64,000 nucleotides of DNA from Parcubacteria bacterium RAAC4_OD1_1 (GTDB lineage: Bacteria > Patescibacteriota > Minisyncoccia > Phycocordibacterales > UBA9973): NCBI GenBank assembly GCA_000505065.1, contig AWSN01000001.1:385-64384 (forward strand), in the 5' to 3' direction. The notes under the pieces were generated by a model. The model had not been told where the DNA came from, searched no databases, and saw only the letters and a list, made by a program, of their open reading frames with translations. Below are positions 8,657-12,078 of the stretch, in pieces (positions within the stretch are counted from its first letter, which is position 1; every line of letters starts with the position of its first letter). Position numbers and translations under genes: made by a program.

Positions 8657-11600
8657 AGGAAATTTAAGAGTATATGGTGGATGCCTAGACTAAAAAAGGC
8701 GATGAAAGACGTAGCATGGCGACGATATGCTTCGGGGAGGTGCCTAGCAACCTTCGATCCGGAGATTTCTGAATGGGGAAACCCTTCCGAGCAAACCTCG
8801 GAAACTTCTACACTAGATGTAGTTGTGCATACCCAGGGAAGTAAAACATTTCAGTACCTGGTGGAAAAGAAAACGAAGTTTATTTCCTTAGTAGCGGCGA
8901 GCGAAGAGGAAAGAGCCCAAACCGAGTGTCGCAAGACACGAGGGGTTGTAAGATGGTAATGTAGATTTATCTAGAAGAGTTACAAAATTTGTTATTAGAT
9001 TAAGTTTCTGGAAAGAAACACCACAGAAGGTGATAGTCCTGTGATCGAAAATAACAGATCTCTTTGATTACTATTCTTGAGTAGCTCAGGACATGAATAG
9101 CTTGAGCGAATCCGGGAGAACTAACTCCCAAGGCTAAATACTTTTTTAGATCGATAGTGAACTAGTACCGTGAGGGAAAGGTGAAAAGAACCCCGATGAG
9201 GGGAGTGAAATAGATCCTGAAACCGTATACTTACAAGGAGTCAGAGCCGTACCTTGCTCATTGCTTCGCAGTAAATTTTGAATTGACCTTAAGATGGATT
9301 CGTCTGTTTTTTGAGCCGTGAAGAAATTTAGTACGAAGTAGCGAGCAGGGGACGGTCATGGCGTGCCTATTGAAGAATGAGCCAACGAGTTTATCTACGC
9401 TGCAGGCTAAGCTGTTAGAACAGTGGAGCCTTAGGGAAACCGAGTGTTAATAGCGCGAAATTATTGTAGTTTAGATAAGACCCGAAGCAAGGTGAGCTTG
9501 CCATAAGCAGGATGAAGTTTGTCGAAAGACAGATGGAGGTCCGAACCGGTGACCCGTGCAATAGTCTCGGATGACTTGTGGTAAGGAGTGAAAAGCTAAT
9601 CGAACCTTGTAATAGCTGGTTCTCTCCGAAATAGCTTTAGGGCTAGCGTCGTGTGTTCCTCTTGGGGGTAGAGCACTGGAAGGTTTCGACAGGGAGCAAT
9701 CTCGCGAAATCTATCAAACTCCGAATACCAAGAGTCATAATACGGCAGTTAGGCTATGGGGGCGAAGCTCCATTAGCCAAAAGGAAAACAGTCCAGATCT
9801 CTAATTAAGGTCCCTAAATTTACGTTAAGTGCAAAACAAGGAGGTGAAATTTCTCCGACAATGAGGATGTTGGCTTAGAAGCAGCCATCATTTAAAGAAA
9901 GCGTAACAGCTCACTCATCAAGAGATATCGCACCGAAAATAATCGGGGCTAAACGTAATACCGAAATTGAGGACTTTCGTTTTATTTATAAAGTGAGAGT
10001 GGTAGGAGAGTATTCTACACCGCATCGAAGCCAAAGGGGTGACCCATGGTGGAGCGTGTAGAAGTAAGAATGTTGGCACAAGTAACCGCAAGGAAGGTGA
10101 GATCCCTTCCCGCCGAAAGATTAAGGTTTCCTGGGCAATGGTGATCATCCCAGGGTTAGTCGGTCCTAAGGAGATGGCGATAGCCGAATCCGATGGACAT
10201 AGGGTTAATATTCCCTAACTTTTATTTAATTCGATGATAGGACGGAGTGTAGTATATGAAGCTCATTATTGGATTTGAGTATTTTAGTGAGAATGGTTTC
10301 TAGGAAAATCCGGAAACTGACGTAAAAGTAACATTCAAGCGAAGATTAAATGTGTGGGTTCGCTCATGCAGATTTCATAAAGCACGCTTCCAAGAAAAGT
10401 ATCTAAGGTTAATTAAATAAAATCCGTACCGTAAACCGACACAGGTAATCAGGTCGAGTAGACCAAGGCGAACGAGTGAGAGGTCTTCAAGGAACTCGGC
10501 AAAATAGCAGCCGTAACTTTGGAATAAGGCTTGCCTTTTAACTTCGGTTAAGGGGCCGCAGCTAAAGAATCCCTGGCAACTGTTTATCAAAAACACAGCT
10601 CCCTGCGAACACGTAAGTGGATGTATAGGGGGTGACACCTGACCAATGCGAGAAGGTCAAATATCGATGGTGTGTGCATCACATTGTATGTGATGTAATT
10701 CTAAAATTGCCAAAATTAATTAGTAATTATTATCATGTATAGCGTGATGTATATGCTGGTTGATATAAGCCCTCGTGAATGTCGGCCGTAACTATAACGG
10801 TCCTAAGGTAGCGAAGTACCTTGTCGGGTAAATTCCGACGCGCACGAATGGTGTAATGACTGGGGAACTGTCTCGAAGACTTGCTCGGTGAAAATACAAT
10901 ACCGGTGAAGATGCCGGTTACCTGCAGATAGACGAAAAGACCCTAGAAGCTTTACTGCAGCTTGATATTGAGTATACGATTACTTTACGTAGCATAGATG
11001 GGAGAGGTTTGATGGAAACGATTTCGGTTGTTTTCTACTCGTCAGTGAAATACCATTTTTTGTGATTGTATATTCTAATTTCTAAGGCAAAAACTTAGAG
11101 AGACAGTATCTGGTGGGTAGTTTTACTGGGGCGGTATCCTCCTAAAGAGTAACGGAGGAGTTTAAAGGTCAGCTAGGCGCGAATGGAAACCGTGCCGATA
11201 GTGTAATGGCACAAGCTGGCTTAACTGTAAGACGTACTTGTCGAGCAGATACGAAAGTAGAACATAGTGAACCGACAATTCGCATTAGATGCGGTTGAAG
11301 ATTAACGGATAAAAGCTACTCTAGGGATAACAGGCTAGTTCCGCCTAAGAGTTCATATCGACGGCGGAGTTCGGCACCTCGATGTCGGCTCACCTTATCC
11401 TCCTGGTGGAGAAGCTGGGAAGGGTTTAGCTGTTCGCTAATTAAAAAGGTACGCGAGCTGGGTTCAAACCGTTGAGAATTTTAGTTTCTAGAATTTTCGA
11501 CAGTTTGAACCGTTGAGGTTAAAACAAATTTAATTTGTTTATGTTTAAATCTGAGATTAAGACCATGATACATAGTAATGTATTCACGGCGGCATAATGT

Positions 11601-12078
11601 AGAGATATATTATGACAAGTTCACTTATATCGGTAAAATCCAGAACGGACAATACCGAGGGAAGCGAAAGCACCCGTAGAGACTGAATGTGAACTATCCA
11701 ATTATTTGGATAAAGTTACAGTCCAATCCCCATAGGAATATGGGAAAATATCCTAAAACATTTTGATTACAAAATGTTCGGACACGTAGATGCGTGAGAC
11801 AGGTTGGTCTCCTATCTACTGCAGGCGTTGATTCTTGAGAAGATCTGCTCTTAGTACGAGAGGACCGGAGTGGACTGACCGCTGGTGTGTGGGCTCTATT
11901 GCCAAATGGACTGCCCAGTAGCTACGTCGGGAATGGATAAGTTCTGAAAGCATCTAAGAACGAAGCCAGCTTCAAGATGAGGAATCGTTTGAGAAACCTA
12001 AGAGATGATTAGGTTGATAGGCACTAGGTGTACGCACAGTAATGTGTTGAGCCGAGGTGTACTAATCGTTCGATTTCT
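8657..12078 (+). rRNA. rrl: 23S ribosomal RNA (about 3.4 kb, carries an intron-sized insertion and AT-rich expansion segments)
   Basis: 5' GGTGGATGCCTAG...GCGATGAAAGACGT...GAATGGGGAAACCC. Internal GTAACTATAACGGTCCTAAGGTAGCGAA. 3' ...GAGACAGGTTGGTCTCCTATCT...GGTTGATAGGCAC... End-pairing helix TTTCCTAATAG(8646-8656)/CTATTAGGAAA(12077-12087). Ends are approximate to within about 5 nt. Confidence 0.9.
11473..11792 (+). ncRNA. candidate group I intron (no ORF) in 23S rRNA
   Basis: 320-nt insertion splits the universally contiguous sequence AACCGU|CGUGAGACAG (5' exon ends in U, insert ends in G). Removing it restores GGGTTCAAACCGTCGTGAGACAGGTT. P7-like complementary pair AGAGACUGA (11678-11686) / ACAGUCC (11718-11724) resembles group I R/S elements. 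Confidence 0.5.

Follow-up and report, generated by a model that had tools for sequence, protein, structure and literature searches.

Insertions at position 2593 of CPR 23S rRNA have been catalogued as group I-like under the name '23IS12' (Tsurumaki et al. 2024, J Bacteriol, PMC11270868), some members of which carry LAGLIDADG_1 open reading frames, and CPR rRNA insertions are reported there to be absent from transcripts. Its main text gives no description of intron helices, a guide sequence or an anti-exon helix (PMC11270868). An insertion site identical to that described below is used by the Chlamydomonas Cr.LSU intron, host of I-CreI, and by the L2593 introns of Synechococcus and Thermosynechococcus (Haugen et al. 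2007, PMC1995217), and the cyanobacterial L2593 introns are ~ 745 nt long with a homing endonuclease gene (HEG) and a ~ 65-nt P7.1/P7.2 extension (PMC1995217). The I-CreI-family type of HEG borne by these chloroplast and cyanobacterial introns is also encoded by relatives of the present intron. Two other systems offer likenesses. Compact bacterial introns of the Azoarcus type (IC3), which we take to share with the present one a compact core without P5abc, a P1 of 3–4 bp immediately next to P2, and GNRA loops capping both P2 and P9, differ in being hosted by tRNA genes rather than rRNA and in lacking its long P1 loop holding an anti-exon. In Tetrahymena pre-rRNA, Woodson and Cech reportedly described P(-1), an alternative pairing of the 5' exon with upstream rRNA sequence; this helix similarly rivals P1 for the 5' exon and is able to modulate splicing, whereas the competitor found here is intron-encoded, 12 nt long and covarying with the exon.

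The window analyzed here, a stretch of 64,000 nucleotides, is from a Paceibacteria-type (CPR/Patescibacteria) bacterium; the closest 23S flanks were those of Paceibacterota MAGs (92–97% identity). Its 23S rRNA gene occupies positions 8651–12086 of the forward strand and is interrupted by a group I intron that is intact and lacks an endonuclease gene, inserted after U2593 in helix 93 (Table 1). A sequence-only reading had proposed a 320-nt insert at this place, starting after a U and ending with a G, and this was borne out by the borders as read and by Rfam alignment of the 23S gene, which left a 322-nt unaligned block exactly at the insert. The 5' exon ends in GGGUUCAAACCGU at 11472 and the 3' exon begins with CGUGAGACAG at 11793. 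The first bases of the intron are UGAG and the last are GAUG, which have no border bases in common with the exons, and the splice borders are therefore unambiguous. The G+C content of the insert is 34.1%, compared with 44.2% for the 23S exons. By homology with E. coli K-12 rrlH, the break point falls between U2593 and C2594 in the loop of helix 93, which is the I-CreI homing site, L2593. The earlier description of an I-CreI/I-CeuI-type site was thus right as to I-CreI; an I-CeuI-type site was ruled out, since that enzyme acts at a different 23S position, presumably 1923. The annotation of the 23S gene should read as two exons, 8651–11472 and 11793–12086. Elsewhere in the same gene, positions 9251–9345 likely form a hairpin of the IVS type.

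Table 1. Features of the intron and its flanking exon segments, numbered as in the window.
Feature	Position	Strand	Remarks
Last 12 nt of 5' exon, GGUUCAAACCGU (23S 2582–2593)	11461..11472	+	Exon strand of clamp helix
Whole intron	11473..11792	+	320 nt; preceded by U11472; final base G11792 (omega-G)
5' hairpin	11473–11484 with 11488–11499 (11473..11499)	+	Continuous with clamp helix; loop UUU
Anti-exon ACAGUUUGAACC	11500..11511	+	Pairs with exon 11461–11472 at 11/12 positions
Peripheral hairpins	11522–30/11532–40, 11543–51/11555–63, 11569–73/11578–82 (in 11512..11583)	+	Drawn by eye, covariation uncounted
Proposed internal guide sequence, UCACG/GCGG	11584..11592	+	Directly 5' of P2; 110 nt downstream
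Proposed P1	11589–92 with exon 11469–72	+	U11472·G11589 wobble
P10	11584–88 with 3' exon 11793–97	+	5 bp; 96.6% paired (47-relative alignment)
P2	11593..11614	+	9 bp, GAGA loop; compensatory changes in 9/9 pairs
P3	11618–24 with 11689–95	+	Spans 11618..11695; encloses P4, P5, P6 and P7 5' strand
P4	11630–35 with 11653–58	+	Inside P3; covariation alignment and Rfam
P5	11639–41 with 11647–49	+	Inside P3; 3 bp, very short
P6	11659–61 with 11673–75, 11664–65 with 11670–71	+	GAAA loop; HEG position in relatives
P7 5' strand	G11679, bulged A11680, 11681–85	+	Inside P3
P8	11696..11711	+	6 bp
P7 3' strand, CAGUCC	11719..11724	+	100% paired; one pair GC 24 / AU 23
P9	11729..11744	+	6 bp, GGAA loop
P9.1 hairpin	11757–65 with 11770–78, extended 11751–53 with 11780–82	+	Within 11751..11792
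Conserved tail, ...GUAGAUG	to omega-G 11792	+	Within 11751..11792
3' exon first bases, CGUGA (23S 2594–2598)	11793..11797	+	Partner of P10 strand

The view of the insert as a group-I-like intron was supported by a complete core comprising P2–P9, the P3/P7 pseudoknot, a bulged-A P7, the U at the 5' splice site, a terminal G and P10. The P7-like pairing pointed out beforehand proved real: G11679 and 11681–11685 pair with 11719–11724, leaving A11680 bulged, and the pairs are invariant or covarying in 47 relatives. Across the alignment of these relatives, 93.7% of pair cells were paired, compared with 32–43% when the partners were slid, compensatory (double) changes were present in 37/53 pairs, and the observed core pairing values were reached by 0/500 shuffles. 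Covariation thus backs the group I helices within a family that numbers more than 100 same-site homologues. The window copy retains every one of the 80 columns with 90% or higher conservation in 46 relatives. The joining segments J4/5 (AAA) and J5/4 (CAA), which in group I introns are the usual receptor of the U·G wobble, are present.

The match to Intron_gpI (RF00028), named beforehand as a check, was significant by E-value (2.3e-9, full model 1–253, in a 501-nt search), but its score of 41.8 bits lies under the 50-bit gathering score. With the gathering score applied, the whole-window run gave no Intron_gpI match, and nor did four relatives scanned with Rfam in the same way. The Rfam group I model misses this whole CPR intron family at its curated threshold, so that automated pipelines can be expected to under-report it. 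The insert nevertheless has the CPR host, the E. coli position (2593) and the Rfam (cmscan) E-value by which '23IS12' insertions are recognized as group I-like in the catalogue (PMC11270868), and it belongs to this already catalogued kind, common in CPR. What is unusual is an extra helix formed with the upstream exon.

In its periphery the window intron differs from the cyanobacterial L2593 introns. It lacks P7.1/P7.2, as only 3 nt (11686–88) separate P7 from P3', and it has no HEG and an expanded P1 loop. It could be that this real intron, with its reduced periphery, does not splice unaided and needs a host factor or a maturase acting in trans, as the core is compact with a P5 of 3 bp, P1 is short, and neither a maturase nor an HEG is encoded. 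Such dependence is considered unlikely, because the GNRA loops L2 (GAGA), L6 (GAAA) and L9 (GGAA) would offer the usual tertiary contacts.

A pattern scan located the same intron type at the identical junction in at least 107 genomes, almost all of them from Patescibacteria; loci L031, L044 and L062 were chance matches outside 23S and were left out. The 107 introns range from 273 to 753 nt and the final base is G in every one. An I-CreI-like LAGLIDADG gene, encoding a protein of the homodimer type in the I-CreI family, occupies loop L6 in 5/107, while L6 of the window copy is a bare GAAA loop. The earlier description of the insert as ORF-less, with no homing endonuclease, stood, since no frame stays open for more than 43 codons; this differs from those '23IS12' members in which LAGLIDADG_1 frames are found. 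At least 120 metagenome contigs had the junction uninterrupted, including one with 91–95% identity to the exons of the window, and the intron would appear to be an optional element.

With fold, boundaries, homology and covariation established, the preferred reading, at a probability of roughly 0.85, takes the insert for a group I intron that splicing removes from the transcript, its excision being predicted from these features. The alternative that it stays in the mature 23S rRNA, whether unspliced in the manner reported for Simkania or as an expansion segment, is very improbable. In its favour, the title of reference 28 in PMC11270868 tells of a 23S group I intron of Chlamydiales that is not spliced. 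Against it, CPR rRNA insertions are described in the same paper as removed from transcripts. In the present case, retention would leave the helix-93 loop split beside the peptidyl-transferase centre, and it sits poorly with the 80/80 intact conserved columns and with the common occurrence of intron-less alleles with identical flanks.

The extra helix joins the last 12 nt of the 5' exon to the anti-exon, and the last 3–4 nt of this exon strand would also enter the proposed catalytic P1. This clamp helix contains a C11470·A11502 mismatch and sets U11472 opposite A11500; 17/18 of its positions were paired, a value matched by 1/2000 shuffles. The anti-exon motif was found in 96/107 relatives and covaries with exon variants, with AU 41, GC 36 and GU 13 at clamp position −6 and CG 87, UA 2 and AU 1 at position −8; intron positions +1 to +4, in the region of the clamp helix, also covary. 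The 5' hairpin that continues the helix is variable in length among relatives and has a tRNA-like insert in two. The stretch between the anti-exon and the guide sequence (11512..11583) contains the family motifs UGAGG and AAGACC; partners for UGAGG/CGAGG and AAGAC(A/C)AU of this stretch were sought and none was convincing.

Together, clamp helix and 5' hairpin give a border hairpin of 24 bp (11461–11484 with 11488–11511, −26.4 kcal/mol), which might be read as an RNase III substrate, making the insert an intervening sequence cut out without ligation to leave a fragmented 23S rRNA. The likely IVS-type hairpin at 9251–9345 in the same 23S gene would be in keeping with this. However, half of the border helix is the essential exon segment 2582–2593, cutting of which would harm the ribosome, and the remainder of the insert is a covarying ribozyme core, complete with omega-G and P10, for which an IVS has no need. 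An RNase III-processed IVS is a simple extended stem-loop that takes the place of the tip of helix 25 or 45 and lacks a ribozyme core, a description that fits 9251–9345, whereas the insert in helix 93 has a multi-helix covarying core. Processing of this kind is thus improbable in the extreme.

For the spliced intron, a guide sequence directly 5' of P2 is proposed. The ligated junction has a single 9-nt complement in the window intron, in which a G faces the splice-site U. A perfect 9-nt complement was present in 87/107 relatives, compared with 1.8% of shuffles, and CACGGCGG in 102/107, so that the placement of the guide is kept in 87–102 of the 107. An archaeal intron at the same site (L026) has GCGUU in the guide place, facing exon AACGU. 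The proposed P1 comprises only 3–4 bp and is beyond a covariation test within the CPR family because the exon side is invariant there; L056, L101 and L109, three of the 47 aligned sequences, have A as fourth guide base (GCGA), which reduces P1 to 3 bp.

The guide candidate thus gives a U·G pair and a 5-bp P10, while the stronger conserved helix sets the same U against A (clamp duplex −12.0 kcal/mol; P1 −4.1 kcal/mol). One interpretation of these data equates the long exon/anti-exon helix with the catalytic P1, the anti-exon being the guide and an unusual U-A pair lying at the cleavage site, so that UCACGGCGG serves only for P10 or a tertiary contact. The helix has the canonical topology, the exon pairing with a downstream intron strand and a hairpin lying between, and it is strongly conserved and covarying. 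In this thermodynamically favoured pairing, U·G is found at the splice-site position in four introns; however, A faces the splice-site U in the other 86/90. The U·G wobble is nearly universal in group I introns and is needed for the first step in Tetrahymena, and its usual receptor is present here in J4/5 and J5/4. Moreover, the motif beside P2 exactly complements both exons with G opposite U, and archaeal L026 has a canonical guide at that P2-adjacent place. A catalytic role for the anti-exon helix is accordingly rated as improbable. Shifted splice sites that would place a U·G in the long helix were rejected, because any shift breaks the conserved helix-93 loop, whose sequence is uninterrupted in at least 120 contigs.

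With the P2-adjacent guide, excision of the intron from pre-23S rRNA would follow the standard pathway of two transesterifications. P7 would bind an external guanosine for attack after U11472, which the guide bases 11589–11592 would position in a short CCGU/GCGG P1 containing the U·G wobble, and UCACG (11584–88) would position the 3' exon through P10. G11792 would then take the place of the external G, and the exons would be ligated to AACCGU-CGUGAGACAG. The P1 loop would have grown to 111 nt, carrying the 12-nt anti-exon (11500–11511) as a trait of this CPR intron family. The helix of anti-exon and exon, much more stable than P1, could be read as a 5' exon clamp or switch; clamp and P1 together would make a pseudoknot, and the inner 2–3 clamp pairs would have to open before the catalytic P1 could form. 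This combination of clamp and short P1, with an exchange from one to the other, is put at about even odds.

A broader proposal is more tentative and on balance doubtful. It holds that CPR L2593 introns have a bipartite hold on the 5' exon, in which the anti-exon clamps 2582–2593 and the GCGG guide takes the last 3–4 bases, and that the clamp is possibly a switch for splicing timing or a guide for reverse splicing. If so, the clamp could set when splicing takes place with respect to peptidyl-transferase centre folding. Alternatively, it might be a long guide by which the excised ORF-less intron reverse-splices into intron-less 23S rRNA, which would help explain the spread or persistence of the 102/107 copies without an endonuclease. 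Either role would bear on both the persistence and the spread of endonuclease-free introns in CPR rRNA genes. Of wider interest is an intron-encoded, conserved and covarying anti-exon helix that competes with a very short canonical P1.

A 10-nt direct repeat at 11467 and 11508, recorded in the sequence-only reading, was verified as an exact 10-mer within a longer repeat of 15 nt at 87% identity (11462–11476 and 11503–11517). The repeat arises from the 24-bp exon/intron hairpin together with the near-palindromic exon GGUUCAAACC, which is almost identical to its own reverse complement. A target-site duplication was rejected as its origin, the second copy being the 3' arm of the hairpin with the exon. 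The GUUGAG found in both copies is specific to the window, which also counts against duplication; relatives begin with UCAG, UAAG, GGAG and others, and their anti-exon is followed by CGAGG or UCAGAGG. Splicing after 11513, in the second copy, was likewise discarded, as it would leave a 41-nt hairpin in the rRNA and bury bases 2586–2587 beside the peptidyl-transferase centre, and the second exon copy is absent from relatives. A pairing of CAUC with the terminal GAUG was dismissed as having the wrong strand order for a helix continuous with P10.

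The bacterial 23S rRNA gene aligned to its Rfam model with a 322-nt block left over between ...GGGUUCAAACCGU and ...GACAGGUUGGUC. By direct reading the last base of the 5′ exon is U11472, the insert spans 11473-11792 and the first base of the 3′ exon is C11793; the insert starts with UGAG and ends with GAUG, so that it has no bases in common with the exons and its boundaries are unambiguous. The sequence-only reading, an AT-rich insert that follows a U and ends with G, was confirmed on each point (34% GC, against 44% in the exons). The homologous bases in E. coli K-12 rrlH are U2593 and C2594, and the insert therefore interrupts the loop-closing part of helix 93, next to the peptidyl-transferase centre. 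The position is that of the I-CreI homing site, and relatives of the insert encode I-CreI-like enzymes. The site had been typed as I-CreI/I-CeuI; the first name stands, while the I-CeuI site is 23S position 1923. The claim that no homing endonuclease ORF is present also held, the longest stop-free stretch being 43 codons and loop L6 consisting of GAAA alone.

A search of 501 nt matched Rfam Intron_gpI over the whole model (1-253) at 11575-11745, with an E value of 2.3e-9. The score of 41.8 bits lies under the gathering score of 50 bits, and the match was for that reason not reported in the whole-window run. Helices were assigned from this model alignment together with reading by eye, and the P7-like pairing proposed earlier was recovered as P7 itself, with a bulged A. 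With high confidence, the insert is a spliced group I intron; the original observation was upheld and its interpretation supported, with corrections to the I-CeuI label, the Rfam score and the origin of a direct repeat.

Coordinates of the rRNA genes, the helices of the intron core and the tRNAs called in two related introns
Feature	Position	Strand	Remark
Bacterial 23S rRNA	8651-12086	+	Rfam
5S rRNA	12198-12305		Rfam
P2	11593-601 with 11606-14		GAGA loop
P3	11618-24 with 11689-95		
P4	11630-35 with 11653-58		
P5	11639-41 with 11647-49		
P6	11659-61 with 11673-75, plus 11664-65 with 11670-71		GAAA loop
P7	G11679, A11680, 11681-85; partner strand 11719-24		A11680 bulged
P8	11696-701 with 11706-11		
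P9	11729-34 with 11739-44		GGAA loop
P9.1	11757-65 with 11770-78		
Terminal G	11792		
L038 tRNA	intron 1994-2519; tRNA 2049-2124	rRNA strand	ARAGORN
L069 tRNA	intron 149-656 as oriented; tRNA 50-126 within the intron	rRNA strand	ARAGORN

Relatives were sought in one genome per species using a pattern that combined P7 and its partner strand with the 3′ exon and that returned at least 119 loci. Among the matches listed, 106 inserts of 273-753 nt occupied exactly the same junction (107 introns analysed with the window copy), and the hosts were almost all Patescibacteria (Paceibacterota, Nomura-, Kaiser-, Vogel-, Adlerbacteria and others). Every one of the 107 introns ends in G. In an alignment of 47 introns that ran from the guide sequence as far as the 3′ exon, 93.7% of pair cells held standard pairs, against 32-43% when partners were shifted by 1-3 columns; both sides had changed in 37 of the 53 pairs, and none of 500 shuffles matched the observed values. 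The terminal pair of P7 was GC in 24 introns and AU in 23, without a mismatch, a split not forced by the search since R and Y were independent in the pattern. All 80 columns conserved in at least 90% of the other 46 introns are intact in the window copy, which is hence no decayed remnant.

The uninterrupted junction GCTGGGTTCARACCGT-CGTGAGACAGGTTGGTCTCCTA was present in at least 120 metagenome contigs. One uninterrupted locus, L166, is 91-95% identical to the window exons; for the nearest relatives that bear the intron the figure is 92-97%. A single-motif LAGLIDADG ORF of ~150 aa is carried by five long relatives (L032, L048, L061, L097 and L114); its frame opens in the P4/P6 strand (YRGK = UAC CGA GGG AAA), and it occupies L6. 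The L061 protein gave a full-length match to I-CreI (E 3e-18) and further matches to I-MsoI, I-CvuI and Pfam LAGLIDADG_1. Close relatives L166, L038, L176 and L245, some with and some without the intron at position 2593 (L2593), have alignments to the window exons that break near 11379/80 (E. coli ~2500) and ~11860 (~2660), suggesting that those genomes have introns elsewhere in 23S.

The 10-nt direct repeat noted earlier (at 11467 and 11508) is real and is explained by a hairpin with the exon. Positions 11461-11484 pair with 11488-11511 over 24 positions, standard or G·U save for one C·A mismatch (-26.4 kcal/mol), and the 3′ arm ends in ACAGUUUGAACC, the partner of the last 12 exon bases. As GGUUCAAACC almost equals its reverse complement, this anti-exon resembles a second copy of the exon. 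The anti-exon is a family feature, its motif being found in 96 of 107 introns. Natural variants of the exon are matched by covarying pairs in this clamp (position -6: AU 41, GC 36, GU 13; position -8: CG 87, UA 2, AU 1), and intron positions +1 to +4 are paired in all combinations. The window copy has 17 of 18 positions paired, equalled by 1 in 2000 shuffles. Unusually, the splice-site U has A as its partner in 86 of 90 introns, G being the partner in only 4, and 66 of the 90 have a C·A mismatch at position -3. In the relatives L038 (Ile-GAT) and L069 (Val-AAC), a tRNA was called in the tip of the 5′ hairpin of the L2593 intron, nesting a tRNA-like gene in an intron in a 23S gene.

The sole 9-nt intron site complementary to the ligated junction CCGU/CGUGA is UCACG/GCGG (P10 strand/P1 strand; 11584-11592), which sets G11589 against U11472; such a site arose in 1.8% of shuffles. 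Of the 107 family members, 102 have CACGGCGG and 87 a perfect 9-nt site, always directly 5′ of P2, matching the canonical order of P10 strand, P1 strand and P2. Both J4/5 (AAA) and J5/4 (CAA), the usual receptor of the wobble pair, are present. The exon is invariant within the CPR family, where covariation therefore says nothing of the proposed P1. An intron at the same site in a DPANN archaeon (L026; archaeon GW2011_AR20, CP010426.1) has exon AACGU and, at the homologous place, GCGUU with one G before P2; its P1 is an ordinary small hairpin, and it lacks the anti-exon. That intron is 705 nt long, with a LAGLIDADG ORF in L6 and extra sequence between P7 and P3′. From the lone junction-complementary site, its conservation and canonical placement, and the L026 P1, UCACG/GCGG was taken as the probable catalytic guide.

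The clamp duplex has an energy of -12.0 kcal/mol, that of P1 -4.1 kcal/mol. On this reading the anti-exon helix is an addition within an expanded P1 loop, and its inner pairs (U-A and G-C, beside the C·A mismatch seen in many introns) would need to open before catalysis and exchange with P1. Confidence in this mechanism of clamp plus short P1 is moderate.

The intron is correctly called and is of an already known kind. A survey of CPR rRNA genes (Tsurumaki et al. 2024, PMC11270868) found insertions in 82% of 23S genes, 45% of those group I-like by Rfam, clustering round the peptidyl-transferase centre; position 2593 is among the recurrent sites with LAGLIDADG_1 ORFs, and removal of the insertions from transcripts is stated there, citing earlier work. 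Cyanobacterial L2593 introns (~745 nt, with a homing endonuclease gene) carry a P7.1/P7.2 extension (Haugen et al. 2007, PMC1995217), which the window intron lacks. In PMC11270868 and PMC1995217 no description of an anti-exon clamp was found. The survey reports rRNA insertions as absent from Saccharibacteria (PMC11270868). Many intron-bearing matches are titled ‘uncultured Candidatus Saccharibacteria’; the two checked, L039 and L112, match the window at 92-95% identity in their 23S flanks, just as Paceibacteria-labelled MAGs do, and the labels therefore look unreliable.

The 23S-5S pair stands alone (window 5378-12305), the 64 kb containing no 16S rRNA; it is preceded by the L10 leader, rplJ, rplL and then two small ORFs in place of rpoB. 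Outside the rRNA gene are an 84-aa free-standing GIY-YIG domain ORF a few kb upstream (3509-3763, minus strand) and, downstream at about 22.4 kb, a serine recombinase (Resolvase/Recombinase domains). A public MAG contig with this locus (L002; GCA_003543255.1, DPIZ01000003.1) begins within the 23S gene, the assembly breaking inside rRNA; the ORF at window 12437 lies ~2.4 kb downstream of that start. The 23S gene also has ~95 extra bases at 9251-9345 (Rfam model position 583/584, helix-25 area), which fold as a single hairpin, long and irregular (-49.4 kcal/mol, z -5.7), and look like an IVS or expansion segment rather than an intron.
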